Origin: Escherichia phage DT57C
Strand: one strand, 5' to 3'
Length of the DNA stretch: 64,000 bases
Sequence record: NC_027356.1
Position numbers and translations under genes: made by a program. Positions 3,534 to 64,000 of the stretch are shown here, one piece after another. Each line of letters begins with the position of its first letter. The first letter of the stretch is position 1. The notes beneath the pieces are model-generated. The model ran no database searches, was not told the DNA's origin, and saw only the letters and a program-made list of their open reading frames with translations.

Positions 3534-3624
3534 TTTTTATTAGCTGAACTCTAATTACCGAGTCATTTTGGCTCGGTTTTCTCTATGTTCAAAGACACTG
3601 GTAGCAGCCCCTGGAAAAATTTAC

Positions 3625-3653
3625 TTGCTTGATGCTCAAAATCTTGATATAAT
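3625..3653 (+). promoter_or_regulatory. T5-type sigma70 early promoter
   Basis: TTGCTT (3625-3630), 17-bp spacer, TATAAT (3648-3653). Confidence 0.6.
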
Positions 3654-3671
3654 ATTTATATTGAATTGAGA

Positions 3672-7039: not shown

Positions 7040-7256
7040 AAAATGGGAAACAAGGAAGTTTCCAGTAAAAGAACGTAAAGTTCCTGTTTACGATACTTCG
7101 GAAAAGCTATGTAGGGTGGTACCACCTAGATTAGCTGGCATCCCTAACATATCCGAGTGGTTACTTAAACAACGGAGGACTAGCGTATCCCTTCGCATAG
7201 GGTTTGAGTTAGATAAAGTATATGCTGAACTTTCTTCTTTGCTCAAAGAATCATAA
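7014..7256 (+). CDS. hypothetical protein (80 aa)
   Basis: ORF overlapping the 3' end of the preceding gene. Confidence 0.3.
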   Translation: MLEMTVKNKKWETRKFPVKERKVPVYDTSEKLCRVVPPRLAGIPNISEWLLKQRRTSVSLRIGFELDKVYAELSSLLKES

Positions 7257-7265
7257 AAAATTTAT

Positions 7266-7294
7266 TTGCTTTCAGGAAAATTTTTCTGTATAAT
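7266..7294 (+). promoter_or_regulatory. T5-type sigma70 early promoter
   Basis: TTGCTT, 17 bp, TATAAT, then ATAAATTTGAGAGAGGAG. Confidence 0.65.
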
Positions 7295-7325
7295 AGATTC
7301 ATAAATTTGAGAGAGGAGTTTAAAT

Positions 7326-8030
7326 ATGGCTGGTTCTCGCAGAAAGAAACATATCCATGAAATCCCGGATGAAGTCTTTAAAAAGGTTATAGAGCATCTG
7401 GAGAACGGTGGTACTAAGAAAGCAGCATGTGAAATGCTCGGCGTATCATCCAATCCGACTATGGAAAGGATGATAGAAGAGTGGCAAGATCGCCAAATTC
7501 AAGTTGCCGAGATGAAGAAAAAGAAACGTGGCACACTCATTGAAGGCATCGAGTTAGCTAACGTTATTGAACAGTATTTATCTGGTGATTCTTTTGAAGA
7601 GATTGCCGATCGTAATTACCGCTCTGTAGCAATGGTTAAATCTGTTCTGGAACGATATGGTGCTCTACTTCGTTTAAACGATATTGTAGACCCGTTGAAT
7701 CCACCAATTATTCCTGATGATGCTGTAGCAGAAGAATTTGAAGTAGGTGAGCTAGTTTGGGTTCCTGGATACCAGTGTATCGGTGAAATCAAAAAAGCAA
7801 TGGATAATCCTGTTGGTTGTTACCGTGTATGGCTTCTATCAGAAGGCAAACAACAGAACGTTCATTATATGAATTACGAGCTGGCTTCTGTTAAACATCT
7901 GGAAAAGCTAGGGGTTGACGTAAAATCTCTGGGGTATAAATGGTCCCGGGAAGAAGTTATCACACTGATTAACGAAGCTGTTAAGGCTGCCTTGAAACTT
8001 GATAAAGAAAAAGGAAAACGCCGTGAGTAA
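7326..8030 (+). CDS. hypothetical protein with N-terminal helix-turn-helix-like segment
   Basis: 234 aa; GTKKAACEMLGVSSNPTMERMI resembles an HTH. Confidence 0.55.
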   Translation: MAGSRRKKHIHEIPDEVFKKVIEHLENGGTKKAACEMLGVSSNPTMERMIEEWQDRQIQVAEMKKKKRGTLIEGIELANVIEQYLSGDSFEEIADRNYRSVAMVKSVLERYGALLRLNDIVDPLNPPIIPDDAVAEEFEVGELVWVPGYQCIGEIKKAMDNPVGCYRVWLLSEGKQQNVHYMNYELASVKHLEKLGVDVKSLGYKWSREEVITLINEAVKAALKLDKEKGKRRE

Positions 8031-8274
8031 ACTAACTGATTTGCTTAAAGATGGGGAAGTAAAAACACTATATCGTAGAAGCTGGGATAACGATAATAAC
8101 GGCTTAGTGTTACTAACTTTAGATGCTGACTCGGATGTAGTTACTCAACATACTTGGGTAGCCGGTAACTATCCATATAGTGAGATTGTTTCATTAACAG
8201 TATGCGAAGCTGTTGCAGACGATTGGGAGATTGCCAGCATTGATGATATGCTCGCTGTTGGCCTGGTGGAGTAA
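8023..8274 (+). CDS. hypothetical protein
   Basis: probable GTG start overlapping the upstream stop; RBS AAGGAAAA; track ORF opens at 7999. Confidence 0.4.
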   Translation: MSKLTDLLKDGEVKTLYRRSWDNDNNGLVLLTLDADSDVVTQHTWVAGNYPYSEIVSLTVCEAVADDWEIASIDDMLAVGLVE

Positions 8275-8291
8275 CTACTTAAAAATTTCAG

Positions 8292-8320
8292 TTGCTTAAT
8301 CCTACAATTCTTGATATAAT
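8292..8320 (+). promoter_or_regulatory. T5-type sigma70 early promoter
   Basis: TTGCTT, 17 bp, TATAAT. Confidence 0.6.
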
Positions 8321-8377
8321 ATTCTCATAGTTTGAAAGAACTATTCTGTTTAATTCTTAATTAAGGAAATATAAAAT

Positions 8378-8788
8378 ATGACTACTCCAACTCAGTGGAC
8401 TGATGAACTGTTCGAAAAAATGTCTTCCGAATACGTTGCTCGTATGGAGCAATTCCCAGAGGATGAACGTCCGAGTGTTAGCATGGAAATTGTTAGTGAA
8501 ATTGCCCAGGAAAATGGTGTAACTCCGAACGGTTTTCGTATGAAGCTGACTAAAGCAGGTTTGTATATTAAGAAAGCTGCTGGCTCTGCTTCTAAATCTA
8601 GTGCATCTACTGGAGAAAAAGCTTCCGGTGGTTCTCGTACCTCCAAAGCCCAGGCTCATGCCGACCTTCGTTCAGCGTTCTCTGATGCTGGCTTAGCACC
8701 AGATTTTCTGGATGATGCAATTATCGACAAACTGACCGGTAAAGCGGCTGCTCATCTGGCAGAAGCAATCCGAGCTATCACTAAGTAA
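8378..8788 (+). CDS. abundant small protein with KL(T/R)K-G module; possible DNA-binding protein
   Basis: 136 aa; host-like high-expression codon usage (ctg, cgt, ggt, gaa); module EIAQENGVTPNGFRMKLTKAG shared with 11674..12441 and 59336..59752. Confidence 0.55.
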   Translation: MTTPTQWTDELFEKMSSEYVARMEQFPEDERPSVSMEIVSEIAQENGVTPNGFRMKLTKAGLYIKKAAGSASKSSASTGEKASGGSRTSKAQAHADLRSAFSDAGLAPDFLDDAIIDKLTGKAAAHLAEAIRAITK

Positions 8789-8802
8789 TAGGGAGATTAT
8801 AC

Positions 8803-9090
8803 ATGAATAAACAAGAAATTATCTCCGCATGTGAAGCCCATAATGAGTTCTACCTTCATTATGAGAAACTACGCCAAAAGGGTACTACATACCTTCAGGG
8901 TACTATGGATTTTTCTGATAAGTACCTAAGTAAACGTTTTGCTCAGGAGCGTATCCGTCAACCAAAAGATGACGAAATTCTAGTGTTTAGTCGCACTAAT
9001 GACAGCTTCCGATTTATTCCTGTTGCGAAAGTTCGTCGCATTACGAGCCTTCAGTCAGAGTTAGATCGTGCTTCTCCAGTAGGCCGATAA
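8803..9090 (+). CDS. hypothetical protein (95 aa)
   Basis: ORF with RBS GGGAGA. Confidence 0.45.
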   Translation: MNKQEIISACEAHNEFYLHYEKLRQKGTTYLQGTMDFSDKYLSKRFAQERIRQPKDDEILVFSRTNDSFRFIPVAKVRRITSLQSELDRASPVGR

Positions 9091-9140
9091 GAAACCAATT
9101 AGCCCCTATATGGGGCTTTTTGTGTATTTGAGAAACGTAA

Positions 9141-9449
9141 ATGAGCGATCAGGTAAACCAAAACTATGAAGGACACGTTGATGATCAGTCAATCCTTCTA
9201 TGGGAAAAAGAAGGGGAACAAGTAAGATTGACAGTATCTGAATTTCGTGGGAATCTATACATGGGAATTAGGTATTGGCTCCAGGATATTACTGGAGAAT
9301 GGTTTCCAACGAAATCCGGCTTCTCTTTTCCGTACACTCTAGAAACTACTTCGCAGCTATTCTATGCTTTTACGCAAATCCTTAGTGAATCTGAGGTTTT
9401 ACATGAAGTACAGAAACGAGCTGAAGAACTCAAAGCCAAGAATGCCTAG
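9141..9449 (+). CDS. hypothetical protein (102 aa)
   Basis: ORF bounded by terminators. Confidence 0.45.
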   Translation: MSDQVNQNYEGHVDDQSILLWEKEGEQVRLTVSEFRGNLYMGIRYWLQDITGEWFPTKSGFSFPYTLETTSQLFYAFTQILSESEVLHEVQKRAEELKAKNA

Positions 9450-9465
9450 TTCTTGGCTTTTTCTT
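9435..9465 (+). terminator. rho-independent terminator
   Basis: stem GCCAAGAA/TTCTTGGC followed by TTTTT. Confidence 0.6.
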
Positions 9466-9476
9466 TATAAATGTAT

Positions 9477-9505
9477 TTGCTTTCAACTCAGTTTTGATAT
9501 ATAAT
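9477..9505 (+). promoter_or_regulatory. T5-type sigma70 early promoter
   Basis: TTGCTT, 17 bp, TATAAT. Confidence 0.65.
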
Positions 9506-9519
9506 ATTTATATAAATTA

Positions 9520-9735
9520 ATGAGAGGATCAATCATGGCAATGACAGTAACACTTCCCAAGATTCAAGCAAAACTTAATCTGCTTTCCACAGCACGCATT
9601 AATTATCAAGATAACATAGGCACAGTAAATCAAAAGGCGTACAAAGATGCGTTTCTGAAAGAATCTGCTGATTTGATGGATATGGTTACACAATATAATA
9701 AAGAACTCAAGATGGAAATCGCCGATGATGAATAA
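9520..9735 (+). CDS. hypothetical protein (71 aa)
   Basis: ORF overlapping the ligase A start. Confidence 0.4.
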   Translation: MRGSIMAMTVTLPKIQAKLNLLSTARINYQDNIGTVNQKAYKDAFLKESADLMDMVTQYNKELKMEIADDE

Positions 9736-10699
9736 TGTAAAAGGCTTTATTAAGCGTTGTCAAGAAGCATATTATCAAGGCATGTCTTTAATCTCTGATG
9801 AAGAATATGATCGCCTAGTAAAACGCTTCCCGTTAGAGGAAGAGATCGGGCCTAAGGGTGATATTCCACATCTGTACCGTATGTATTCTTTACAGAAAGT
9901 TTATTATAATCGTGGAGATAAACCCCCATTTAACCCATTAGGTCAAGTAGAAACTGATAAGTTAGATGGTTGTGCAATTTCCTTATTATATATTAATGGC
10001 GAATTTGTTCAAGCATTAACTCGTGGTAACGGTATTCTAGGTAATGATGTCACAAGCAACGTAAGATTGCTGAACATCCCTAAAAAGATTTCTCAAAAAG
10101 TACCTACTCAAATCACTGGTGAAGTTCTAATTACAAAAGAAGTAGAAAATAAACGTAACTTTGCCTCTGGTGCTATTAACCTCAAAGATAGTGATGATTT
10201 CGTACAGCGTATCGGGGAAGGTGGTTTAATCTTCGTTGCATACGGTATCCAGTGTTCTGCTGAATCTGTAGGTATTACAGAAGCGTATTTAAAAGATATG
10301 CTTTGGCTAGAGAATGAGAACTTCTTAACAGTTGTTAATGTACGTTCCTTCTTTAAATGGATTCCAACGGACGGTAAAGTTGTTCGTATTAATGATAACA
10401 ACAAATTCTTCCGTGAAGGCTGGACTAATAAATTTCCTCGCGGTGCATTTGCTATTAAAGAGGATGAAGAAGGTGAGACTACAACTCTTACTAAAGTTGA
10501 ATGGAATGTAGGGGCTTCTGGTAAAGTAACTCCAGTCGGTTATTTTGAACCAGTAATTATTGATGATGCTACAATTGTTAAAGCGACTCTTAATAACGTT
10601 GATTATATTAACTCTCTCGATCTAGAGATCGGTTGCCAGATTCGAGTGATTCGTGCTGGTGGTGTAATCCCGTGCATAGTAGAGCGAGTTTACGATTAA
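9725..10699 (+). CDS. NAD-dependent DNA ligase, subunit A (adenylation domain)
   Basis: 324 aa; KxDG adenylation motif (DKLDGCA) and OB-fold region; stops before the Zn/HhH/BRCT half. Confidence 0.85.
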   Translation: MMNNVKGFIKRCQEAYYQGMSLISDEEYDRLVKRFPLEEEIGPKGDIPHLYRMYSLQKVYYNRGDKPPFNPLGQVETDKLDGCAISLLYINGEFVQALTRGNGILGNDVTSNVRLLNIPKKISQKVPTQITGEVLITKEVENKRNFASGAINLKDSDDFVQRIGEGGLIFVAYGIQCSAESVGITEAYLKDMLWLENENFLTVVNVRSFFKWIPTDGKVVRINDNNKFFREGWTNKFPRGAFAIKEDEEGETTTLTKVEWNVGASGKVTPVGYFEPVIIDDATIVKATLNNVDYINSLDLEIGCQIRVIRAGGVIPCIVERVYD

Positions 10700-10749
10700 T
10701 ACATAACCCTTTGCTACCCCTCTACCATATCGGAATTATAAAGTGGTTA

Positions 10750-10778
10750 TTGACATTTTCGCCGCTTAGGTATATACT
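10750..10778 (+). promoter_or_regulatory. sigma70 promoter inside the ligase intergenic region
   Basis: TTGACA, 17 bp, TATACT. Confidence 0.55.
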
Positions 10779-10842
10779 ATTATCATTCAGTTGAGGGATA
10801 GAAAGTTATGGCGAGGGTAAGCAAAGTTAGTTAAAATTGTAG

Positions 10843-10871
10843 TTGCTAAATGCTTAAATACTTGCTATAAT
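10843..10871 (+). promoter_or_regulatory. T5-type sigma70 promoter upstream of ligase subunit B
   Basis: TTGCTA, 17 bp, TATAAT. Confidence 0.6.
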
Positions 10872-10901
10872 ATTTATATAAATTGATAAGGAAGAAATTT
10901 G

Positions 10902-54705: not shown

Positions 54706-54734
54706 TTGCTTTTATCTCTCTATTTTGCTATAAT
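54706..54734 (+). promoter_or_regulatory. T5-type sigma70 promoter for llp
   Basis: TTGCTT, 17 bp, TATAAT, downstream ATAAATTAGAAATGGAGAGA. Confidence 0.65.
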
Positions 54735-54765: not shown

Positions 54766-55032
54766 ATGAAAAAGTTTGTAATTGCACTAGTTGCCACAGT
54801 TATGTTATCTGGTTGTGCACCTGCTCCCAAACCATTTTGTACGGGATTTGTAAAATCTTTTGGTGGTGCGGGAGAGGAACATTACGGTCTCAAGGTTCAA
54901 AAAGTTCGTATTAAGGGAGATCGCTTTCCAGTAGTACAGCTCCGTACTAAGTTTGGGTGGTGGGATCTCAGTCAGTTTGACCTTAAATATGGTGATTGTA
55001 AATTTAAACTAGAGCAATCTAATTACCTGTAA
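54766..55032 (+). CDS. llp: lytic-conversion lipoprotein (Llp-like, receptor-blocking)
   Basis: 88 aa; signal peptide plus lipobox MLSGC; small Cys-containing mature part; divergent from the RBP gene. Confidence 0.7.
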   Translation: MKKFVIALVATVMLSGCAPAPKPFCTGFVKSFGGAGEEHYGLKVQKVRIKGDRFPVVQLRTKFGWWDLSQFDLKYGDCKFKLEQSNYL

Positions 55033-55208
55033 TTAGTATAAAACAAAAAGACATCCAAGTAAACTAAATTTTTTATTTCTTGGATGGTATATTGGCATAA
55101 ACCACTATGTAAGAAAAGTAGAAGTCCTTCTAGGAGTCCATAAGCACGGTTGGTTATGCACAAATTGTAGAATACTTTAAATATCACATTTATAGGAGCA
55201 TGAAAGAT

Positions 55209-55337
55209 ATGTCAAACAAGAGAAAAAGTAGACGCGGAGAAGTGTATGAGAGTTGGGTTAATAGTTTTGGACTTGGGACTATCCTATTTTTTATTTTCGT
55301 AGGTTTTTGGTTGGCAGCTATGGCGGGGTGGATTTAA
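55209..55337 (+). CDS. small membrane protein (42 aa)
   Basis: RBS AGGAG; basic N-terminus then one hydrophobic helix; TAATG coupling to the next ORF; below the ORF-track cutoff. Confidence 0.35.
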   Translation: MSNKRKSRRGEVYESWVNSFGLGTILFFIFVGFWLAAMAGWI

Positions 55338-55444
55338 TGGAATGGGTAATTGTTACATTGCTAGGGATTGTGATTATTGGGCAATGTATTTTAGATAATC
55401 ACTTAGCTAGAATTGAAACTTTACTAACGGAGAAACGTAAATGA
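55337..55444 (+). CDS. small membrane protein (35 aa)
   Basis: hydrophobic helix VIVTLLGIVIIG; ATGA coupling to the next ORF. Confidence 0.35.
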   Translation: MEWVIVTLLGIVIIGQCILDNHLARIETLLTEKRK

Positions 55445-55635
55445 TGGAAGTAGTAGCTACACTAATAGTAATACAAGTCTGGGCAACTTTCATTGTTTCT
55501 TATAACGCGTATGTTCGCCTAAAAACTCTAGAGGCTCAAGTAAAACAGCAACAAGTTACTCTAGAAAAGCTAGTACTACTGCAACGTTGTGATAGTACCC
55601 GCATTTTGCAAATTGAGAGGGAATTAGATGTTTAG
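55441..55635 (+). CDS. small membrane protein (64 aa)
   Basis: N-terminal hydrophobic helix followed by coiled-coil-like segment. Confidence 0.4.
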   Translation: MMEVVATLIVIQVWATFIVSYNAYVRLKTLEAQVKQQQVTLEKLVLLQRCDSTRILQIERELDV

Positions 55636-55873
55636 TATTATACTTGCTTTTATTATCGGGGTGCTTGCGGGAATTTTCGGAATGACTGCGGCTATTAACA
55701 AGCATCGCAAATATATCGCGGAAGTATCGCGGGAGATTGCGGAAAGGGAGCGGAAGTTTGACGAGAAACGTGCGGAGTTCGAACGGGAGTGGAGTGATGG
55801 TTCTCGGGCGTCGCGGAAGAGATTTCGTGAGTTTAGACCTGAACATCGGTTTGATGACCATTCTATGCGCTAA
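55628..55873 (+). CDS. small membrane protein (81 aa)
   Basis: N-terminal TM helix IILAFIIGVLAGIFG then highly charged Arg/Glu-rich tail. Confidence 0.4.
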   Translation: MFSIILAFIIGVLAGIFGMTAAINKHRKYIAEVSREIAERERKFDEKRAEFEREWSDGSRASRKRFREFRPEHRFDDHSMR

Positions 55874-55985
55874 TTGGGAAATCTCGAAATTTCATAAGAT
55901 TACACATGGAGGTGTGCTCACCGCCGGAGGCGAAAATACTTAGTCTGCTAACCGCCACCCCCCGTTACTATTACTCTGCTAACTA

Positions 55986-56018
55986 TTTCACCTTGCAACC
56001 ATTTTAATTGCAAGGTGA
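55986..56018. terminator. bidirectional hairpin terminator between convergent operons
   Basis: 12-bp perfect stem TTCACCTTGCAA/TTGCAAGGTGAA. Confidence 0.6.
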
Positions 56019-56038
56019 AACAAATTCAACTGTAATTA

Positions 56039-56773
56039 TTACGCTACTTTTAATTTCTCAATATATTGTTGTGGGCTGCAACTATATTCTGCGCGCTCCT
56101 CCTCGGTCATACCTTCCCAACATAATTGCAAGCGGTCGGCTAGGAACTGATAATCATTATCATCTTCAAGAGATTCATCAATAAAGGTTTCGCCGATCAA
56201 TGTGACGCCTATTGATAGAATATCGTTAACGGCTTGCGCGTCCAGCGTTTTAAATCCATATGCCGCCGCCGCTGATAATACGCCTTTATGATCATCAATC
56301 ATCGTGAAATCAGCGTTCGGATATAGCTGTTTGAATAGCTCAAAATAATGGCTTTTATATATAGCGTCTTTACTGTGGTATATTTCGCTAACCTTATCAG
56401 CCGTAAAATATTTGTGAAGTGTATCGCGGGAAAATACGCGGATATTGCTATTCCCACGCCCTCGCAGACCTTGTTTGCGCAAATAATAATAATCCGACTT
56501 ACTCATCAGGCGAGCGGTGCAAATAATGTTTAACGTGTTGGCGTCATTCATGCATTGGCGCATATAGGTAACGAGCGGCAAAAGCGTATCCTGCATTATT
56601 AACTCATGTTTGCACGCTTCATTTTTATACTTATTTAAATCTAAATCGCCTTCAATATCAAAGCAAGGCGCTACACGGTGGGCGGAGTTAATGATCGTGC
56701 CGTCCAGATCCCAAATCATTACGCGGGAAATATGCGGGTAATTGCGGGAAATATTCTTTTTATCTTGATTCAT
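56039..56773 (-). CDS. dmp: 5'-deoxyribonucleotidase (HAD family, T5 Dmp-like)
   Basis: 244 aa; HAD motif I DLDGTI; size and position match T5 dmp (memory). Confidence 0.7.
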   Translation of the reverse strand: MNQDKKNISRNYPHISRVMIWDLDGTIINSAHRVAPCFDIEGDLDLNKYKNEACKHELIMQDTLLPLVTYMRQCMNDANTLNIICTARLMSKSDYYYLRKQGLRGRGNSNIRVFSRDTLHKYFTADKVSEIYHSKDAIYKSHYFELFKQLYPNADFTMIDDHKGVLSAAAAYGFKTLDAQAVNDILSIGVTLIGETFIDESLEDDNDYQFLADRLQLCWEGMTEEERAEYSCSPQQYIEKLKVA

Positions 56774-56847
56774 TTTGTTACGTTCTCCATTAAAGGGATT
56801 AAGTTAATTTAATCCAGCCCATACAGTGGGCTGGAGTATTTCAGTCA

Positions 56848-57249
56848 TTAAAATACCAGACCATAAGCCAAAGCATCAGCGATAACAGTAATATCCTCGC
56901 CAGATACACCGGAACGAATACCGGCGCATGTAAATACCTTCGCGCTCATTAACTGATCATCAAGACAAGCGGGGCAAGGCGCGACAACTGCGAAAGCTAA
57001 ACCAGCTTTTGCGGCGTCAATAATAGTCGTTTCTTGTTTCATCGTATCAATGTAAACGCCTTTCGCCTTGATGCGGCTAGATAGCTTGCCCGTGGTGTAG
57101 GCGAAAGTAGTGATCTGTAGCGCCTCATTAAATTCGATTAAGTCATCAACAACGTGCCCCGCCTCGACGTGATAGCGCTCACCGGTAGAATAAACTAGGA
57201 CGATTGCAGACTGCGCGCGATCGAATGGGATACGGTTGTAAGTAGTCAT
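56848..57249 (-). CDS. pre-early hypothetical protein (133 aa)
   Basis: ORF with the conserved pre-early leader/RBS motif. Confidence 0.45.
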   Translation of the reverse strand: MTTYNRIPFDRAQSAIVLVYSTGERYHVEAGHVVDDLIEFNEALQITTFAYTTGKLSSRIKAKGVYIDTMKQETTIIDAAKAGLAFAVVAPCPACLDDQLMSAKVFTCAGIRSGVSGEDITVIADALAYGLVF

Positions 57250-57318
57250 GCGTATAACTCCAATTAATTTAATAAACTTTTATGGCGGCGGTATATTTCG
57301 CCCGCCCGCCTGATTTAT

Positions 57319-58983
57319 TTACGCGAAAAATTTGCCGTTTTTAAAGTCGATTAACGTGCGCTGCCCGTTTGCATATGTAATTACATGCGTTTGCGTCCAG
57401 CTTGATGCGCCGACGTTGTAGCCCATATCGAGGCTGCCCGATACGCCAGCAGTATATACGCCGCCGTAAATGCTGGCGGTATGGGTGTGCCCCGTGTTTA
57501 ATTTGCCCAACTTTTTAAATTGCTTCGGATTGCCGCGGCTCCCGTTGATGCCGTTGTGACCGTGTACGCCGCACTCAATGCCTGCAATCTTGAATGATTG
57601 ATCAGTCGTTAGGAATATGGCGTTAAACTCACAGCCTGCAACCTTGCGCAGCGCATAATCCAGCACGTTGAAAGTATCGTCATTTTCTGCAATAGCTCCA
57701 TAGATCGCGGCGTTGAGGCGGTGATATAGCTCTGCGTTTGCTGGATCGTCTTTAATGTTAGCGTTGCGATCATCCAGCCAACGGGATAACGCCAGATCGT
57801 GGTTTGACTCAACAATGATTGTTTGCGAGAAATCGCGCTCCATTGATTCCAATACACGCCCCGTGTCGATAAGATCATCTAAAACCTTATCACGTCCGGC
57901 GGCGTACTGTTTTGCTAGGAATACGCCAGATGCGCGATTGTGGTGGTTGCGTGATGTAAAGTCATGCACATCATGCACGAACTGATATTTAGGTTTAAGA
58001 ATATCAAGCAAACTATTTTCGCCCGCCCATGACGCTTCAGCACACGCCTTATCTAATTTTTCAGCGTGCACGTCGCCATACTGTAAACCTAAAACATGCC
58101 CCGATGTTTCATAACATCCGGCGGGAGTGGCGCAAATATTCAAATCATAAAAAACGCCGGTTTCATCCATCGTCTCAAGCTGGCGAACAAAAAATGCCCC
58201 GTCCTCGTCAAACTCGACAATCAGCGCGCCAAAGTTATGTAACGCTTCGGCCTTTTGCCCTGCTTTCTGCTGAATGTAGTTTTTTAGCGTTGCCGCTCCC
58301 GTTGAGTACATACGGCGCACTACTTCACCTTTGAGCGCTGGAACGCTTTCTGCGGTGATTTTAGCTGCTCCAATTGCCAAACCTTCAAGATCAAGCGCTG
58401 TTGCAGTCTCAGCGAATCCAGAAAGCGGGTAGTCTGCCGTTGGCAAAACATTAATCTCAGCCATGAAAGCAAAGCGGCGACTATTTAAAAACACGTTTTT
58501 ATTACAGATATATTTATCAAAAGCGGAATCATATTTGATCCCGTCCGCACCTTCTCCATTCTGGAATCCTTTTTTGTTATAAATGAACTTGCTAACCAGC
58601 AAATCAGCGCCGATAAATTGGGCGTAATGTTCAAGTGAGGCTAAAAAGTTTTTATGCGGGAACGTGTTGTTCTGGATTGATGTTATAATGAAGCGTTTGC
58701 CCTGCTTTACTTCCCACTGTTCAACCGTGCTAGAAATAATTCCCGCCGCCTCTGGGCGCTCGTCGTTTTTAACGGCTTTTGATGCTTTCGCCTCTTTTGG
58801 TTTCGCTGGTTTGTTTGCTTCCAGCCAATCACAAATTGCGGTCGAATGTTTTGCCGTATCGTACACCGCTTTTGATATATCGTCGCAGACTTCCAATCTA
58901 GTAGCGCGCAGACGTTTACCGTAAAAATTAAAATCAGCGGCCAGCTTCAGGATAACGGTTTGTTTTTCTGCGGAAATAACCAT
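57319..58983 (-). CDS. A1: A1-like pre-early protein (metallophosphatase-fold nuclease-like)
   Basis: 554 aa (T5 A1 is about 556 aa, memory); metallophosphoesterase-like motifs GDVHAE, GHNG, GHTH. Confidence 0.65.
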   Translation of the reverse strand: MVISAEKQTVILKLAADFNFYGKRLRATRLEVCDDISKAVYDTAKHSTAICDWLEANKPAKPKEAKASKAVKNDERPEAAGIISSTVEQWEVKQGKRFIITSIQNNTFPHKNFLASLEHYAQFIGADLLVSKFIYNKKGFQNGEGADGIKYDSAFDKYICNKNVFLNSRRFAFMAEINVLPTADYPLSGFAETATALDLEGLAIGAAKITAESVPALKGEVVRRMYSTGAATLKNYIQQKAGQKAEALHNFGALIVEFDEDGAFFVRQLETMDETGVFYDLNICATPAGCYETSGHVLGLQYGDVHAEKLDKACAEASWAGENSLLDILKPKYQFVHDVHDFTSRNHHNRASGVFLAKQYAAGRDKVLDDLIDTGRVLESMERDFSQTIIVESNHDLALSRWLDDRNANIKDDPANAELYHRLNAAIYGAIAENDDTFNVLDYALRKVAGCEFNAIFLTTDQSFKIAGIECGVHGHNGINGSRGNPKQFKKLGKLNTGHTHTASIYGGVYTAGVSGSLDMGYNVGASSWTQTHVITYANGQRTLIDFKNGKFFA

Positions 58984-59080
58984 AATATTAAAACTCCATT
59001 AAAGGGATTAAGAACGTTTGTTATTGGCAAATATTGCCAAATATAACGCTGCTTATTAACAGCGTTATAATTTGCAATAC

Positions 59081-59326
59081 TTAACTGATCGGCATCAGGC
59101 TAGAACTAACACCACAAACAACGGCGGTAATAAAACAAAATAAGCCTAAACGCTTTGCTAACTTTGATTTGCGTTTAAAGTAATATGAATCCAGATCATT
59201 CTGGAAATAAGCGAACAATAATGAGGCCGCTACAATAAATAAACCTAGAATTAACGATTCAGTGGGATAAAAGATCATTTTAATAATTCCAGTTAAAGGG
59301 AAATTATAGTGGGGAATATTCCCCAC
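59081..59326 (-). CDS. small membrane protein (81 aa, two TM helices)
   Basis: two hydrophobic segments. Confidence 0.45.
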   Translation of the reverse strand: MGNIPHYNFPLTGIIKMIFYPTESLILGLFIVAASLLFAYFQNDLDSYYFKRKSKLAKRLGLFCFITAVVCGVSSSLMPIS

Positions 59327-59335
59327 TAATTAAAT

Positions 59336-59752
59336 TTATTCACCTGCGGATTGTTTTACTTCATCTGCTACGCCTAGTAATTGCGCTACGGCGTCCAGCG
59401 TTTCTAATTTTGCGCTTTCCAGACTTGCCAGATCGTCGGCGTCTTTGATAATGCCGGAATCAATGGCATGTTTAGCAATAACGCGCACATAATGCGCCTT
59501 GCGGATTGAACTACCGCCGCCAACTTTGCGCGGTTTATCGCTTTTCTGATACGCTTTTGCGCTGGTCAATTTTGAGCGAACAGACACAGGGGAAGTAGCG
59601 CCCACTGTTTTGGCGATCTCTTTCAGGCCGTCGCTGTTTGCGAACTCTAAACCGTTTTCATTGATTAATTGCTGATACATAGAAACGGCTTTTTGGGTAT
59701 TTTCTTCATTCCATGCAAATTTTGCGGATTTTTCGGTTTTAACGTTAGTCAT
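59336..59752 (-). CDS. pre-early protein with KL(T/R)K-G module; possible A2-like DNA-binding protein
   Basis: 138 aa; module LKEIAKTVGATSPVSVRSKLTSAKAYQK related to repeats of 11674..12441 and 8378..8788. Confidence 0.45.
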   Translation of the reverse strand: MTNVKTEKSAKFAWNEENTQKAVSMYQQLINENGLEFANSDGLKEIAKTVGATSPVSVRSKLTSAKAYQKSDKPRKVGGGSSIRKAHYVRVIAKHAIDSGIIKDADDLASLESAKLETLDAVAQLLGVADEVKQSAGE

Positions 59753-59809
59753 GGTATAAACTCCAATTAATTTAATTTAAGGGATAAGATTAACATAATG
59801 TTAATCGTT

Positions 59810-59839
59810 ATATTTCCCCAATAGTTCGGGGAAATATAA
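59810..59839. promoter_or_regulatory. 11-bp-stem hairpin preceded by 15-bp palindrome TTAACATAATGTTAA
   Basis: TATATTTCCCC/GGGGAAATATA inverted repeat between two pre-early genes; palindrome at 59791-59805. Confidence 0.4.
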
Positions 59840-59852
59840 AGTTAACACTAAA

Positions 59853-60104
59853 CTATGCTACAGCTTCCAATTTTTCGTTACGTTGAACAACTTTTACAAC
59901 GTCGCCAGATTTAACGCGAACACTAAAAACGGTTTTTCCGTTGTTGCTACGTTCCGTTTCTGCATATACTGCATCAATTACATCGAACGGCATGAGCGCC
60001 GCGCCTTTGATGCGTTCGGCCTTTCCGGTTGCCTCGTCTGTTTTAGTAACGAAAGGGATGAAAACGGATTGACCAATTTTTGGCGCGGTGATAGCGTTTT
60101 TCAT
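59853..60104 (-). CDS. pre-early hypothetical protein (83 aa)
   Basis: ORF with conserved leader/RBS; promoter-like TTGACG, 17 bp, TAAAAT upstream on the minus strand near 60305-60335. Confidence 0.45.
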   Translation of the reverse strand: MKNAITAPKIGQSVFIPFVTKTDEATGKAERIKGAALMPFDVIDAVYAETERSNNGKTVFSVRVKSGDVVKVVQRNEKLEAVA

Positions 60105-60341
60105 GGTATAAACTCCAGTTATTTGATGGATTGTTCCGCATTACCTGCTAAAAAATAATAACAGGTAATAAGAAAAAATCCGCTCACCGTTAAAATCAAT
60201 TTAAGGAACTCCACACAGGCCGCTATATCCCGTTAGGGGGCGGGGCACATTATGGCAAGTACCGGCCGTCAAATTTTACCAAGTTATCGCTCTTGTTGAA
60301 TCGGGTACATTTTAAAGCCTATCGGCTAGGGCGTCAAATTA

Positions 60342-60509
60342 TTTTTCGTTTTCTTTTAAATTAGAATTCTCCCAACTGAATTGCATCTCGCAAAATATTT
60401 TCCCATCTTTATGATGGTAAGCGATCTCGCTCCCGTGGTTAGCACAGAAAGCGATCACTGCCTCAGCTTGTTCTACCGTGATATTGTTGGCCGTTTCTTT
60501 GATTTTCAT
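60342..60509 (-). CDS. small hypothetical protein (55 aa)
   Basis: translated codon by codon; strong RBS AAGGAGA 6 nt upstream of ATG; below the ORF-track cutoff. Confidence 0.4.
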
Positions 60510-61135
60510 ATCGTCGTCTCCTTATAAGGTTAATAAGTTTGCCGCCGATGGGCTTTAAAATGCACCTGATTTTTAAAGAGCGCGGCGGTAAACTTTCCGC
60601 CGTGTAGTTCGTCATTGCCGCCCTACGAGATAAATAATAGGGAATACCCAAAAAAGGTGCAACCTTAATTTTGTAAAGAAATGTAAAGAAAGCAAATACC
60701 CGCACCGCGTCCGGCGATCGCCCAAGTTTAAAGGAAACAGGCGCGCGGATACCATAAAACCGAGCTGATTGGCAAGTAATTTTTTCATTTTTATTTGCCT
60801 TGCCCTACTTGACAAAACTTAAAAAGCTCGTGGTGACGATAAACGGGCTATCCCTTTATGATGGGATACCTGAAAAATTTACCGCGTTGTAGGACGTTTT
60901 AGGCCGCTTATCTTCGATTTAACAAATATTTAACAAAAGCAAAATTGAAAAATAGTTTGAGAAGGTATTGACTTTTTAAAATCAAGACTAAACGAGTTAT
61001 TTTAAAAAATTAATTAATTGACTTTTATTTGTTGTTGTGTAGTAGAAAGATAGCAGACTAATAATTGCTAGAATGATAATCATGCTGGTGATTGTAACAG
61101 ACTGAACTATTAGCAGACTACTGATCCCGGAAAAT

Positions 61136-61175
61136 CTCATTAGCCAACTAACTATCTCATTAGCCAACTAACTAT
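61136..61175. repeat. 20-bp direct repeat, 2 copies
   Basis: CTCATTAGCCAACTAACTAT twice in tandem. Confidence 0.8.
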
Positions 61176-61185
61176 TTCATAAGTT

Positions 61186-61365
61186 ATAATAACTATAAAA
61201 ATAATCACCGTTAAAATAATCACTATAAAAATAATCACCATTAAAATAATAACTATAGAAATAATCACCATTATAATAATCACCATTAAAATAATCACTA
61301 TAAAAATAATCACCATTAAAATAATCACTATAAAAATAATCACCATTATTATAATCACTATAAGA
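61186..61365. repeat. 15-bp tandem iteron-like array, 12 units
   Basis: alternating ATAATCACCATTAAA and ATAATCACTATAAAA units. Confidence 0.9.
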
Positions 61366-61401
61366 AACTATCGGCTTAAGTGAGAACCACTATCATTTAA
61401 G

Positions 61402-61510
61402 TTATCCACAACGTTATCCACAGCACAAAATGATTTGACACGATAGGCGGCGATATAAAGATTTATCCACAGACTTATCCACAGGTTATCCTACTGTATA
61501 TTTATCCAGG
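61402..61510 (+). promoter_or_regulatory. DnaA-box cluster A (4 perfect TTATCCACA plus 2 degenerate)
   Basis: TTATCCACA at 61402, 61414, 61463, 61475; variants TTATCCTAC and TTATCCAGG. Confidence 0.7.
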
Positions 61511-61880
61511 GTAAAAAGATAGTGTTTACAACTGCAATCAATTTTGAGCGGCCTAAAACGCTTTCTAACGAGCTGATCGCTGTAGGGTAATATTAAAGTA
61601 AAGCCTTTACCCGTCGGCCTAGAGGCTTCGCCGTGTTTTGCTCTTTACTGCACCGCTGCGCGGTTAGCATAAAACTAGGTGTTAGGCAAGAAAAATAAAA
61701 AGTAAAGTAAACGTTGCCCCTAGAAAGAAAATAATTTTACCGGTAACATCGAAAGCGGGTAATAATTAACCTAATGTAAAGTTTTGTAAGGCCCGCCATA
61801 ATCAGCGGCCTTTTTTGTTATACTGCCCTTACACCGTTTAAGGACGGTTAAAAATTTCCCGAAAAATTTGGAGGCTTAAA

Positions 61881-62060
61881 ATGGTTATTTTTCGATCTAT
61901 TCTGGCGGGTATCTTGGGCGCTATTTTAACTCTATTTGCTACCGCTTACGGTATTCAAGATTCTTATTGCGGTTTAGTAAATACTAAACCTATGGTTATT
62001 ATTGGCGCGGGTATCGCTGTTTTTTCTTATTTGCTGGGCTGCATGAATAAAGGAGAATAA
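61881..62060 (+). CDS. small membrane protein (59 aa)
   Basis: RBS GGAGG; two hydrophobic segments; first ORF of a coupled small-gene cassette. Confidence 0.4.
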   Translation: MVIFRSILAGILGAILTLFATAYGIQDSYCGLVNTKPMVIIGAGIAVFSYLLGCMNKGE

Positions 62061-62062
62061 AA

Positions 62063-62275
62063 ATGATCCGCAACGTTTCTCTTGCTCGTTCCAAAGGTTT
62101 TAAGCTGGTGGATGTAAACACGTTCGAGCGTCCTGGTTGTAAAATCGAATATATAGCGCGGAATAAAAACGCTTTCCGCGTTACAGAAAAGAGATTCGAT
62201 AAACGCGGCAACGTGATAGCTGAAACGGTTAAATATTTTGCCACCTTTTACGCGGCCTTTCGTGGGGTATTATGA
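62063..62275 (+). CDS. hypothetical protein (70 aa)
   Basis: track ORF; RBS AAAGGAGAA upstream. Confidence 0.4.
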   Translation: MIRNVSLARSKGFKLVDVNTFERPGCKIEYIARNKNAFRVTEKRFDKRGNVIAETVKYFATFYAAFRGVL

Positions 62276-62397
62276 AGAGCGTTGTTATTGTTATCCTTGC
62301 AATGGTTGGCGGTTTTACCACCACCTTGTTTAGAAATGATCCTCTTTTGCTAGGGATCTTTATGCTTTTATCTGGTTATCTGATCGGGAGGTTATAA
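62272..62397 (+). CDS. small membrane protein (about 41 aa)
   Basis: ATGA overlap with the upstream ORF; hydrophobic; my manual reading of this stretch disagreed by 1 nt with the ORF track, so coordinates are approximate. Confidence 0.25.
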   Translation: MKSVVIVILAMVGGFTTTLFRNDPLLLGIFMLLSGYLIGRL

Positions 62398-62398
62398 A

Positions 62399-62743
62399 AT
62401 GGTGATTTATGAAGGTGATCGCCTTGTTGCTGATTGCCGTCCGGCATTGTTAGCAAACTACTTAAACCAGCTTTCGCCAGTATATAAAGGCGTTATAAAT
62501 ATTTATGAAGGCGGGGCGCATTATAAGATTAATGCGGTCGTTGCCCGTGAACTAGCGTTTCAATTTTTAACCTTTTCATCTTGCAATATTCAGGTCATGG
62601 GTGAGGCGTTAATTGCAGAAAATGAAGATGATTTTATTAATATCTTTCGCAAGATATGCACCGAGCGCCTGATAATGAAAGGGGCATATATTCAATCCAC
62701 TGCGGATAGTATTGAAACGGCTTTTCGAAAGGTGGCACAATGA
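62399..62743 (+). CDS. hypothetical protein (114 aa)
   Basis: track ORF; coupled start; no recognisable motif. Confidence 0.45.
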   Translation: MVIYEGDRLVADCRPALLANYLNQLSPVYKGVINIYEGGAHYKINAVVARELAFQFLTFSSCNIQVMGEALIAENEDDFINIFRKICTERLIMKGAYIQSTADSIETAFRKVAQ

Positions 62744-62881
62744 AGCTATATATTTTCGCGGGTAATGTTGAGGCTGCAAATGATTCCGCTGGTGGCGATA
62801 GCGTTCGCCATTATTGGCAAAATTATATTTACTAGGCGTAATGATCACGGGGCACAACTATCAGGGAGTGCCCCTGATTCT

Positions 62882-62904
62882 CAAATGAGAATGATTCTCA
62901 TTTG
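62882..62904. promoter_or_regulatory. perfect 23-bp palindrome, operator-like
   Basis: CAAATGAGAAT-G-ATTCTCATTTG; same AATGAGAAT core as the 23-bp tandem array. Confidence 0.6.
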
Positions 62905-63079
62905 ACCGCGCCCGCGATGGTTAGCACACTAATGATTAGGGTGTTACGTGTCGCCTTGTGTGATCGTTAGCGGGCTAACTAATTTTCAAGCCTCCTCCAG
63001 ATTTGCCCTTGTTTTAGTATCCCCATCAAAATAAAACGCGTTAGAAAGCGATTCAGGGCGTTTTAGGCCTATATTAGAA

Positions 63080-63208
63080 TTATCCACTGCGTAGGAATAC
63101 TGTATATTTATACAGTAGAATAACCTGGGGATAAGTCGGTGGATAACGCTTCAAAATGGCTAGAATTTTGTCAAGGCAAATCGTGCTGTTGATAAGTCTG
63201 TGGATAAC
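63080..63208 (-). promoter_or_regulatory. DnaA-box cluster B, inverted relative to cluster A
   Basis: TTATCCACT at 63080 (+); minus-strand TTATCCACC (63138-63146) and TTATCCACA (63199-63207); 17-mer TTATCCACAGACTTATC shared in inverted orientation with 61463-61479; 8-bp-arm inverted repeat at 63099-63116. Confidence 0.65.
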
Positions 63209-63230
63209 TTAAATAACAGTGTTTCTCACT

Positions 63231-63502
63231 TCCGTTTTTAAATGCGAATCATTATCATTTGCATTCCACTTCTTAAATGAGAATCATTTCACTTCTTGAA
63301 TAGTTCTCATTCCCTTTCTTAAATGAGAATCATTTCACTTCTTGAATAGTTCTCATTTCACTTCTTGAATAGTTCTCATTCCACTTCTTAAATGAGAATC
63401 ATTCCACTTCTTAAATGAGAATCATTCCACCTCTTAAATGAGAATGATTATCATTCGCATTCCACTTCTTAAATGCGAATGATAATCATTCTCATTCGCA
63501 TT
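63231..63502. repeat. 23-bp tandem array (8 units) with palindromic flanks
   Basis: units CCACTTCTTAAATGAGAATCATT and TCACTTCTTGAATAGTTCTCATT in order A-B-A-B-B-A-A-A at 63266-63449, flanked by AATGCGAAT...GCATT palindromic elements. Confidence 0.9.
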
Positions 63503-63510
63503 CCGGCGAG

Positions 63511-63526
63511 CAGGGCAATTGCCCTG
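63511..63526. repeat. 16-bp perfect palindrome
   Basis: CAGGGCAATTGCCCTG. Confidence 0.8.
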
Positions 63527-63530
63527 CGCT

Positions 63531-63755
63531 TATGTGCAAATCCGACAATTGCTCCAAGGGTTACGCGAGGGCATGTATGTGCAAATCCGACCCATTTTTT
63601 GGTAGTGTGCAAATCCGACCCCAAAAATTTATAAATTCGTGAGAGTGACAAATCTGTCTCCCAAAAACTCCAGCAATCACGAACTGCGTTCGAATCCTGT
63701 GGGGTATGTGCAAATCCGACACGGTTTTTCTAGGATTAAGATGTGCGAATCCGAT
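63531..63755 (+). repeat. dispersed direct repeats of a 13-16-bp motif (4 perfect plus 1 variant)
   Basis: (T)ATGTGCAAATCCGAC at 63534, 63579, 63607, 63708; variant GTGCGAATCCGAT at 63743; each followed by a short T- or A-run. Confidence 0.8.
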
Positions 63756-64000
63756 GAAATTTTTGTGACTTCGATGAGAGGGTGTGTGATTGTATAGGTT
63801 TGAGGAGAAGATGAGAGAGCGAGAAAAATTTTGGGGCTAGAAGTGTATGGGCGCAGGATTGGTGCGGAGCACCTGATTTGCGGGGGTTTTGGGGGATAGT
63901 GGAGATAATTTGGGGAAATTTGAGATAGGTGCAGAAAAAGTAAAATTTTATTAGCTAAAGGGGGCAATATAGCTTGACAATTGAAAATTCTTGTGGCTCT

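Follow-up and report, generated by a model that had tools for sequence, protein, structure and literature searches.

Several kinds of small phage membrane protein offer points of comparison for the genes considered here. T4 Imm and Sp, P22 SieA, and HK97 gp15, which mediate superinfection exclusion at the inner membrane, are small, non-essential phage membrane proteins of the infected or lysogenic cell, and the T4 exclusion proteins are encoded by early genes. Spanins and holins are likewise small phage membrane proteins with one transmembrane (TM) helix, and some of them are encoded by overlapping genes. In T5-like phages, the best-known exclusion gene is llp. Its product is an outer-membrane lipoprotein that is directed at one receptor and is swapped together with the receptor-binding protein (RBP). 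Cloned llp alone confers receptor-specific exclusion, with a drop in plating efficiency of >100-fold, and this exclusion of ~100-fold was set by its authors against one of ~10^6-fold in an earlier study (PMC4728585).

Four small genes lie directly downstream of llp in the classical members of the group. They are annotated as T5.159-T5.162 (T5p155-158) in T5 and as Orf1-4 (DQ097178; BF23_00172-175) in BF23. The four open reading frames (ORFs) have been known, and present in annotations, since 2005-06; these records assign no function to them. No mention of T5.159-162 or T5p157/158 was found in the paper texts searched, and the genes are absent from the BF23 genome paper, two Llp structure papers, the HIDEN-SEQ preprint, and a phage-penetration paper.

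The window analyzed here is a 64,000-nucleotide stretch of Escherichia phage DT57C (NC_027356.1), and the genome from which it comes is that of a T5-like Tequintavirus. KM979355 (Escherichia phage DT571/2) is 100% identical to the window and annotates all four genes (CDS DT5712_000130-133). In the ORF listing of the window, they occupy 55209-55873 of the + strand and overlap by 1, 4, and 8 nt. The features of the region are as follows.

54706..54734, + strand: llp promoter, with TTGCTT, a 17-nt spacer, and TGcTATAAT (extended -10)
54766..55032, + strand: llp, encoding the BtuB-type receptor-blocking lipoprotein of 88 aa, annotated in KM979355
55052..55086, + strand: weak hairpin between llp and ORF1, with 11-nt arms, a 13-nt loop, and no U-tract; fold z-score -1.7
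55168..55198, + strand: conserved ORF1 leader in an alignment of 14 relatives, with a -10-like TAGAAT at 55168-55173 and the Shine-Dalgarno (SD) sequence AGGAG at 55194-55198
55209..55337, + strand: ORF1, 42 aa, orthologue of T5.159 and BF23 Orf1; basic N-terminus (KRKSRR) and C-terminal predicted TM helix
55337..55444, + strand: ORF2, 35 aa, orthologue of T5.160; N-terminal predicted TM helix and a 16-aa amphipathic tail (LARIETLL...KRK)
55441..55635, + strand: ORF3, 64 aa, orthologue of T5.161; N-terminal predicted TM helix; in the 43-aa tail, hydrophobic residues recur at heptad spacing
55628..55873, + strand: ORF4, 81 aa, orthologue of T5.162; N-terminal predicted TM helix, then an E/R/K-rich predicted helix ending near residue 69; C-terminal tail variable
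55916..64000, no strand assigned: right terminal repeat, carrying dmp, A1, and the rest of the pre-early block in its second copy; downstream boundary of the cassette

The initial annotation had described four ORFs of 42, 35, 64, and 81 aa at these coordinates on the + strand, between llp and the pre-early block. Both the ORFs and their location on the llp strand agree with the annotated record; the start of the repeat is given by the repeat_region of KM979355, in which locus position 3917 equals window position 55916. Chaining through TAATG and ATGA overlaps had been proposed as well, and this holds for ORF1/2 (TAATG, 1 nt) and ORF2/3 (ATGA, 4 nt). The ORF3/4 junction has a longer overlap, ATGTTTAG (8 nt). 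Two of the genes had been thought easy to miss. That does not apply to this genome, in which all are annotated, but it does apply to its relatives, since 11 of 30 sampled records lack an annotation of ORF1.

An SD-like site precedes every start, with a duplex dG of -6.3 to -6.8 kcal/mol and a spacing of 6-9 nt, and the sites of all four ORFs are kept in relatives. In the alignment of 14 relatives, ATG 55209 and its AGGAG are kept, unlike the in-frame ATG that lies upstream of them (55200); the 42-aa start of ORF1 is thus the correct one. Longer versions of ORF1, of 45 aa (from ATG 55200) and of 57 and 63 aa as given in the T5 and BF23 records, were rejected because the upstream start and the N-terminal extensions are not conserved. 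An antisense ORF of 101 aa (55556-55861) is open in all relatives; its dN/dS exceeds that of the sense frame, as expected opposite GA-rich codons, and it was also set aside.

The four ORFs match PHROG profiles over their whole length: ORF1 matches phrog_8596 (1e-31), ORF2 phrog_6369 (1e-25), ORF3 phrog_5851 (1e-33), and ORF4 phrog_6447 (8e-48). The same four families, which are labeled "unknown function" or "membrane protein", were given to T5.159-162 in the CRISPRi-ART annotation. The T5 and BF23 orthologues share 78-95% protein identity with ORF1-4 and agree with them in gene order, strand, length, and the overlaps at the junctions. Placement of the overlapping genes between llp and the right terminal repeat, on the strand of llp, is seen in T5, BF23, and 30 or more other loci. 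A tblastn search recovered 446 phage records with ORF1 and 442 with ORF4, and almost all Tequintavirus and Epseptimavirus phages have the cassette. Further out, Klebsiella phage Roth39 has two ORFs of like architecture at the same position, and Serratia phage Slocum probably carries an ORF1 homologue there.

Conservation of the reading frames, on which the initial annotation had made its proposal partly depend, was checked in 34 related loci. ORF1, ORF2, and ORF4 are open in all of them and ORF3 in 24. The dN/dS values are 0.12 (ORF1), 0.17 (ORF2), 0.45 (ORF3), and 0.36 (ORF4), and for each ORF the annotated frame has the lowest value among the six frames. Substitutions pile up at third codon positions, insertions and deletions consist of whole codons or heptads, and 32 of the 34 loci keep the ATG starts, the SD sites, and the class of each overlap. 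ORF1-4 are genuine genes under purifying selection.

The composition of the cassette does vary. ORF3 is cleanly missing from the remaining 10 loci, where the ORF2/ORF4 junction has been re-formed. Phage Bas33 has an inserted 51-aa paralogue of ORF2, the ORF4 homologues show heptad indels and mosaic tails, and in phage SP3 half of the ORF4 TM helix is lost. Profile comparison (hhalign) of ORF2 with ORF3 gave a probability of 44%; the same comparison among the ORFs found no relationship of ORF1 or ORF4 to other members of the cassette.

The promoter upstream of llp is identical in sequence to the -35/-10 signals annotated in the BF23 record DQ097178, and it probably drives a transcript that would extend across llp and ORF1-4. 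The llp gene itself matches phrog_1119 (1e-25) and the Pfam lipid attachment site LPAM_1, and the function of the identical gene of DT57C has been demonstrated (PMC4728585). Promoter and terminator scans found no strong + strand promoter or terminator between llp and ORF1 and nothing convincing after ORF4. The hairpin at 55052..55086 was considered as a terminator and found unconvincing, as it has no U-tract and the terminator scan was negative there. The BF23 genome record predicts a promoter upstream of ORF1, and the TAGAAT in the conserved leader could be a separate promoter. No Rfam family or tRNA matched in the region.

Expression can be followed in the relative Bas33, in which transcription of the region follows second-step DNA transfer. 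At 20 min, RNA-seq gave TPM values of 219/127 for llp, 162/137 for the ORF2 paralogue, 462/408 for ORF3, and 22/13 for ORF4; in infections halted after first-step transfer, reads were all but absent (0 or 1). ORF1 and ORF2 have only 1-2 reads in this table, which is probably an artefact of read assignment, both features being short (about 110-130 nt) and overlapping their neighbors. No protein-level trace of ORF1-4 was found, and their accessions do not occur among the covered entries of the Bas33 dataset.

The genes downstream of llp do not co-vary with the receptor module, as judged from sequence comparison. In T5, the neighboring oad and llp genes are non-homologous to those of the window, being of the FhuA type instead of the BtuB type found here, yet the four downstream proteins retain the identity given above. 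Homology to T5 resumes at window position 55163, 46 nt upstream of ORF1. The Llp/Cor lipoproteins (phrog_1119) resemble ORF1-4 in their side of the transcript and strand and in being early, accessory, and not required in the laboratory. ORF1-4 differ from Llp in that they have no lipobox, are predicted to reside in the inner membrane, and are kept when the llp/RBP module is exchanged; unlike the upstream gene, they do not match phrog_1119 or LPAM_1. In the T5 CRISPRi-ART knock-down screen, T5.159-162 were all scored "Not Fit", as was llp. This is a weak sign of dispensability, since the screen detected 17 Fit genes in total.

The membrane properties of the proteins were examined by hand, using hydrophobicity and the positive-inside rule only. 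Each protein has one strongly hydrophobic stretch of 17 residues (Kyte-Doolittle 2.2-2.7), which is C-terminal in ORF1 and N-terminal in ORF2-4, and in each K/R residues flank the stretch on the side of the tail. The proposals of one TM helix per ORF and of highly charged tails in two of them are thereby borne out, with 55% charged residues in the tail of ORF4 and 30% in that of ORF3. The soluble parts are 16-58 aa long. ORF1 is predicted to be tail-anchored, because its TM helix is C-terminal, with its basic N-terminus in the cytoplasm (N-in). ORF2-4 are probably N-out/C-in, because K/R residues lie on the C-terminal side of their helices; their helical tails would then be cytoplasmic, with almost nothing in the periplasm. 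AlphaFold2 models ORF3 as one continuous helix (residues 2-63, pLDDT 86) and ORF4 as a helix over residues 2-69 (pLDDT 75).

Searches for distant relatives returned little. PADLOC gave no match for ORF1-4, and Pfam and NCBIfam gave nothing above cut-off; no similarity to a known exclusion protein or to defence models was found with these three resources or with PHROGs, whose matches were to T5-like phage proteins. Word-indexed searches of 5.8 billion proteins returned T5-like phage proteins or noise only, and an HMM profile built from the ORF4 alignment found only the T5-like family itself among 1.84 billion representatives. No homologues outside T5-like phages were detected, with an exhaustive search for ORF4 only. 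PDB sequence searches gave no match. The nearest approach to a described domain is LapA_dom (PF06305), which scored 22.6 bits (E = 1e-4) against ORF4, below the Pfam gathering threshold of 28 bits. It is the best Pfam match in 14 of 19 ORF4 homologues (E <= 0.01, best 1e-4), each time below threshold. The LapA domain has the same layout as ORF4, in which a basic or charged helix comes after an N-terminal TM helix, but the scores stay under the threshold and there is no sign of common descent or shared function. PspB and YhcB/ZapG have a similar architecture, with a TM helix and a cytoplasmic charged helix.

Taken together, we consider it rather likely that ORF1-4 form a real, conserved, llp-linked, and dispensable cassette of inner-membrane micro-proteins, and that this is not a lysis module. 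Other readings of the region were weighed against this one. That the ORFs arose by chance, or are non-coding and conserved through an element of the DNA or RNA close to the terminal-repeat boundary, might be suggested by the very short length of two of them, by the near absence of assigned Bas33 reads for ORF1 and ORF2, and by the way in which the region abuts the repeat. The codon-level pattern refutes this, however, with its third-position substitutions, dN/dS of 0.12-0.45 only in the annotated frame, indels of whole codons or heptads, and conserved starts, SD sites, and stop-start overlaps, and the region lacks Rfam and tRNA matches; the idea is given almost no credence. Equally hard to credit is a role in tail assembly or in the tail fibre. 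It derives from database labels, UniRef and several GenBank records calling ORF3 homologues "tail assembly protein" and homologues of ORF1 or ORF4 being labeled "tail fiber protein" in UniRef/GenBank records. The PHROG labels say otherwise, neither Pfam nor PDB provides a match, and the genes follow the early gene llp, on the other strand from the late structural operon. None of the four is among the entries listed in the portion of the BF23 virion mass-spectrometry table that was available, and a 64-aa protein composed of a TM segment and a helix, absent from 10 of 34 phages, is unlikely to be a tail chaperone. A set of the holin/antiholin/spanin kind had been put forward as an alternative in the initial annotation; we rate a role in lysis, be it of this kind or in the regulation of lysis timing, as very improbable. 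Small proteins with one TM helix and, in ORF3 and ORF4, charged C-termini do loosely resemble holins or antiholins, and a lipoprotein gene, llp, lies upstream. Llp is nevertheless an established receptor blocker, and the comparison with spanins breaks down in topology, size, lipoprotein partner, and genomic location. An i-spanin has an N-terminal TM helix and a long periplasmic coiled coil (C-out); here C-in is predicted, the tails would be cytoplasmic, and soluble parts of 16-58 aa are too short. For an o-spanin, a lipobox scan of the three + frames of 55200-55960 gave a single motif (nt 55653), and neither within nor after ORF3/ORF4 is there an ORF with a lipobox. This motif, LLSGC, stands in another frame inside ORF4, has no start codon, and is followed by 7 codons after the Cys; from reading of the variant codons, as opposed to computation, it was judged not to be conserved. 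A unimolecular spanin, which combines an N-terminal lipoprotein signal with a C-terminal TM helix, is not encoded either: ORF1 has such a helix, but its N-terminus is basic (MSNKRKSRR), with no signal peptide and no Cys. There is no endolysin nearby, with T5 lys (T5.040) at about 20 kb, and in T5-type phages the holin, the endolysin, and both spanins are described as belonging to a lysis cassette at another genomic site (PMC4342426). The holin C1 was scored Fit in the same CRISPRi-ART screen that scored T5.159-162 as Not Fit, and ORF3 is dispensed with in 10 of 34 phages. Membership among the spanins thus fails, and for spanins the lysis reading is largely refuted.

What such a cassette might do can be proposed more tentatively. 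ORF1-4 would occupy the distal end of the early llp transcript, be translated in a coupled manner, and insert into the inner membrane, where the heptad-patterned helix of ORF3 and the rigid E/R/K-rich helix of ORF4 would form cytoplasmic tails; the proteins would probably associate through their TM and helical segments. It is possible, at well below even chances, that they have a dispensable, receptor-independent function at the inner membrane that complements the blocking of the outer-membrane receptor by Llp, for example by hindering or closing the T5-type DNA-entry channel or by stabilizing the membrane after injection. A role in superinfection exclusion, which the initial annotation had also raised, or in envelope function is plausible as a candidate. 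The narrower proposal, which we hold to be unlikely, is that ORF1-4 form a hetero-oligomer in the inner membrane that serves as a second, receptor-independent layer of T5-type exclusion or closes the DNA-entry channel. Such a complex would act on the conserved DNA-entry machinery, such as the pb2 tape-measure channel, and not on the outer-membrane receptor. A receptor-independent layer would explain why the cassette stays fixed beside llp despite llp/RBP swapping, and the missing second layer might explain why llp alone gives just ~100-fold exclusion. A literature search found no published exclusion test of ORF1-4. The proteins have no detectable sequence similarity to T4 Imm/Sp, P22 SieA, or HK97 gp15, and unlike these they are predicted to cross the membrane by one helix and to expose next to nothing to the periplasm. 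Alternatively, the cassette may modulate host inner-membrane proteins during host takeover or anti-defence and not act on incoming phage DNA, with transporters, proteases such as FtsH, stress sensors, or membrane-acting abortive-infection effectors as the envisaged targets. This is doubtful but a serious contender. It fits the architecture, which is that of bacterial regulatory small membrane proteins (a TM helix and then a short cytoplasmic helix), the sub-threshold LapA_dom resemblance in 14 of 19 ORF4 homologues, and conservation whatever the receptor type; dispensability in laboratory K-12 hosts and the gain and loss of members are as expected of conditionally useful accessory genes. The proteins show no similarity to characterised inhibitors or to above-threshold PADLOC, Pfam, or NCBIfam models, however, no host partner is known, and this reading does not account for why about 440 genomes keep the cassette linked to llp.

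For the annotation of this group, the outcome of a conserved llp-linked membrane cassette is mainly one of clean-up: the ORFs are real and known, they are no lysis module, ORF1 is under-annotated in many relatives, and labels such as "tail assembly protein" are unsupported. T5 is a classical model phage, and these four genes adjoin its best-known exclusion gene. If they do encode an inner-membrane counterpart of Llp, or modulators of the host membrane, they would represent a new class of phage micro-proteins and would be relevant to the engineering of T5-like therapeutic phages.

The four genes at window 55209-55873 are best explained as an accessory, translationally coupled cassette that would encode four single-pass inner-membrane micro-proteins. 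Over the 1-kb region around them, the sequence matches Escherichia phage DT571/2 (Tequintavirus; KM979355) at 100% identity, and a window position equals the position in that record minus 44418. The initial annotation described four overlapping ORFs between llp and the pre-early block. This description is correct in its coordinates, overlaps, and flanks, as the ORF list places all four on the + strand at exactly these positions:

54706-54734, llp promoter (TTGCTT, 17-nt spacer, TGcTATAAT), identical to the annotated llp promoter of BF23
54766-55032, llp, BtuB-type receptor-blocking lipoprotein, upstream of ORF1
55209-55337, + strand, ORF1, 42 aa
55337-55444, + strand, ORF2, 35 aa
55441-55635, + strand, ORF3, 64 aa
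55628-55873, + strand, ORF4, 81 aa
from 55916, right terminal repeat, downstream of ORF4, with the second copy of pre-early dmp and A1

The ORFs are joined by TAATG (1-nt), ATGA (4-nt), and ATGTTTAG (8-nt) overlaps. A perfect 13-bp hairpin, TTTCACCTTGCAA / TTGCAAGGTGAAA, is present in the terminal repeat (55986-56020), just 3' of dmp (- strand). It has fold z-scores of -5.1 (+ strand) and -6.8 (- strand) and lacks a U-tract. It may act as a terminator for dmp or, in both directions, stop the ORF4 and dmp transcripts that converge there. The left-repeat copy of this hairpin would fall near the genome end.

Sequence comparison indicates that ORF1-4 are genes and not chance ORFs. The comparison covered 34 related loci, all of them in Tequintavirus or Epseptimavirus phages that infect Escherichia, Salmonella, Shigella, Klebsiella, or Citrobacter. 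Intact frames of almost constant length were found for ORF1, ORF2, and ORF4 in 34/34 loci and for ORF3 in 24/34. Third codon positions hold most of the variable sites, and pooled dN/dS (Nei-Gojobori) was 0.12 for ORF1, 0.17 for ORF2, 0.45 for ORF3, and 0.36 for ORF4. In a six-frame comparison, the annotated frame had the lowest dN/dS and was the sole frame free of stops across all four genes. The reading frames put forward in the initial annotation are thus conserved among relatives. Each gene starts with ATG behind a Shine-Dalgarno-like site (-4 to -9 kcal/mol), and 32 of the 34 loci keep the overlap classes. Where ORF3 is absent, a new junction arises in which the stop of ORF2 overlaps the start of ORF4 by 1 nt. 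The 42-aa ORF1 is right, and the 57-aa (T5) and 63-aa (BF23) versions are over-extended, because AGGAG and the ATG at 55209 are conserved in relatives and an in-frame ATG at 55200 is not. A 101-aa antisense ORF (55556-55861, - strand) lies opposite ORF3/ORF4 and stays open over ORF4 in all relatives. It was rejected, with a dN/dS of 0.46 against 0.36 for the sense frame; the simplest account is that GA-rich E/R/K codons leave the opposite strand open. No Rfam families or tRNAs were found in the ORF1-4 region, and a non-coding reading of the cassette is highly improbable.

By tblastn, 442 phage records contain ORF4 and 446 contain ORF1. A1, a pre-early protein, was found at 80% identity or more in 440 records; therefore, the cassette is essentially universal in Tequintavirus and Epseptimavirus. 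Word-indexed searches of 5.8 billion proteins, and a full profile search with ORF4 against 1.84 billion representatives, detected no homologues beyond this phage group. ORF3 is missing in 10 of the 34 loci, and ORF4 of phage SP3 lacks half of its transmembrane helix. An extra 51-aa gene is present between ORF1 and ORF2 in Bas33/HildyBeyeler (MZ501074, locus L035; 1838-1993) and in loci L011 and L016. It is a clear ORF2 paralogue with a common MEWVII start, an L[AS]RIETLL...K end, and a longer middle, and thus the cassette grows by tandem duplication. Many phages carry HNH homing endonucleases or an additional acidic 71-aa gene 3' of ORF4. In Bas33 (2572-3111), locus L031 (2841-3314), and two similarity matches (H11 and H13), HNH genes separate ORF4 from the terminal repeat.

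Klebsiella phage Roth39 (L036, PQ657804), whose A1 is 73% identical, possesses two ORFs of the same architecture at the cassette position (4736-5425). Both the 74-aa ORF ('MEVVI...') and the 153-aa ORF have an N-terminal transmembrane helix and a coiled coil, and the former matches ORF3 with 65% probability in hhalign. Unlike T5-like phages, which carry llp there, Roth39 has no lipoprotein directly divergent from its receptor-binding protein gene. Serratia phage Slocum (L038, MN095770) has an unannotated 35-aa ORF, MKRHEVYDYYLSLFGVVGTIVVV..., in the syntenic place (4775-4882); a small two-locus search with the ORF1 profile picked it up at E = 0.002. It seems that ORF1 is kept even where other genes replace ORF2-4. 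From this comparison, including Slocum, ORF1 is the most constrained member of the cassette and apparently the most widely kept.

The four genes are already known. KM979355 annotates them as DT5712_000130-133, with notes that cite T5.160, T5p157/ORF150, and T5p158/ORF151. Their T5 counterparts are T5p155-158 (T5.159-T5.162 in other numbering), and the BF23 fragment DQ097178 names them Orf1-Orf4. Full-length PHROG matches are 8596, 6369, and 5851 (all three "unknown function") and 6447 ("membrane protein"). They have been annotated and in established orthologue groups since 2005-06, and these results would be no surprise to a T5 specialist. T5.159-T5.162 are unmentioned in the main text of the searched literature. 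The Epseptimavirus ORF1 (44 aa; L029, L031, L033, and other loci) is frequently unannotated, and the ORF1 match has no annotated feature in 11 of 30 sampled records. Some records annotate a 104-aa ORF in a different frame that overlaps the ORF1 start. ORF4 is intact yet unannotated in S133 and CitS1. The name 'tail assembly protein' is widespread for ORF3 homologues, in UniRef as well as in several GenBank records; ORF1 or ORF4 homologues are called 'tail fiber protein' or, in one case, 'H-N-H endonuclease'. These names look like propagated mis-annotations. The tail labels were rejected; the cassette is on the strand opposite the structural operon and has no family match. Its products are not among the listed entries of the BF23 virion table, and a virion-related role is very doubtful.

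Expression of the cassette follows second-step transfer, and the four genes probably form the distal end of the llp transcript. In a sequence scan of the interval from llp to ORF1, no + strand promoter comparable to that of llp was found and no terminator, only a weak hairpin. A second promoter just before ORF1 is possible, since a -10-like TAGAAT about 35 nt upstream is conserved and, in T5 and Epseptimavirus, takes the extended TGn form. A promoter upstream of ORF1 is also predicted in the BF23 genome record. Bas33 RNA-seq at 20 min (two replicates; PMC13250531, Dataset S1) lists TPM values of 219 and 127 for llp, 162 and 137 for the ORF2 paralogue, 462 and 408 for ORF3, 22 and 13 for ORF4, and about 1 for ORF1 and ORF2. 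These are modest against about 170-10,900 TPM for the other genes listed alongside. For ORF1 and ORF2, which are the shortest of these features and overlap, the near-zero counts are probably an artefact of read assignment. The cassette reads listed in this source were nearly nil (0 or 1; PMC13250531) in infections halted after the first step of transfer. The T5 CRISPRi-ART knock-down screen rated llp and each of T5.159-162 'Not Fit' (scores -3.6 to -4.1, p = 0.24-0.91). This lends weak support to dispensability, because just 17 genes were called Fit. The natural losses, ORF3 absence and the SP3 ORF4, are stronger support.

In each protein, a single 17-residue window is strongly hydrophobic (Kyte-Doolittle 2.2-2.7). 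ORF1 is predicted to be tail-anchored and N-in, since its N-terminus is basic (MSNKRKSRR) and its helix closes the protein at the C-terminus. In ORF2-4, the helix begins after 1-3 residues with K/R directly behind it, and by the positive-inside rule these proteins are predicted to be N-out/C-in with almost no periplasmic part. The helical tails would face the cytoplasm. The ORF3 tail has, by eye, hydrophobic residues 3-4 apart (L27, L30, V34, L41, L44, I55, I58, and L62), and AlphaFold2 gives one helix (residues 2-63, pLDDT 86). Charged residues make up 55% of the E/R/K-rich ORF4 tail, which has eight pairs of opposite charges at i/i+4 and a single hydrophobic residue in each heptad (I30, I37, F44, and F51). 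For ORF4, a single helix is predicted over residues 2-69 (pLDDT 75), with a disordered tail behind it. ORF4 homologues have 7-residue indels within the long helix, and at least four unrelated C-terminal tails alternate after residue 67 (the last ~14 residues). Both the topology and any oligomerisation are inferred.

The initial annotation also raised a holin/antiholin/spanin-like set, superinfection exclusion, or membrane targeting. The spanin reading fails, with no lipoprotein partner, the wrong predicted topology and size, and the wrong genomic location. A unimolecular spanin was rejected, as ORF1 has neither lipobox nor Cys. A lipobox-like LLLSGC (55653-55676, + strand), in the ORF1 frame within the transmembrane-coding part of ORF4, is a chance match because it lacks a start codon and its frame runs just 7 codons past the Cys; judged by eye from variant codons, it appears unconserved in relatives. 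Holin/antiholin activity is disfavoured by the location, by the absence of ORF3 from some natural phages, and by the CRISPRi-ART screen, in which holin C1 gave a contrasting result. A lysis-related role is most unlikely.

The oad/llp modules of T5 and DT571/2 are non-homologous, and similarity resumes at 55163, 46 nt before ORF1; ORF1-4 themselves are 78-95% identical. The receptor-binding/receptor-blocking module is described as inherited as a unit (PMC8624392), and the cassette sits just outside it. The llp gene is identical in DT57C and DT571/2. The DT57C copy, cloned on its own with a reverse primer that ends at the ORF1 start codon, cut plating of the DT phages and BF23 >100-fold and left T5 unaffected (PMC4728585). 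This is far below the ~10^6-fold exclusion reported earlier for BF23, a difference that the authors could not explain (PMC4728585). Because llp alone excludes and the cassette lies outside the swapped module, ORF1-4 are dispensable for receptor-specific exclusion and are not receptor-specific Llp cofactors.

No match of ORF1-4 to known exclusion or defence families was found. The main rival, that the cassette modulates host inner-membrane proteins or acts in counter-defence, is possible, if rather unlikely. Receptor-independent protection at the inner membrane is proposed from the llp linkage in ~440 genomes, the constancy of the cassette despite receptor-module swaps, its dispensability, and its membrane confinement. 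This role is offered tentatively and with low confidence. The cassette would hinder or close the T5-type DNA-entry channel, or stabilise the membrane, and in this way may complement Llp.
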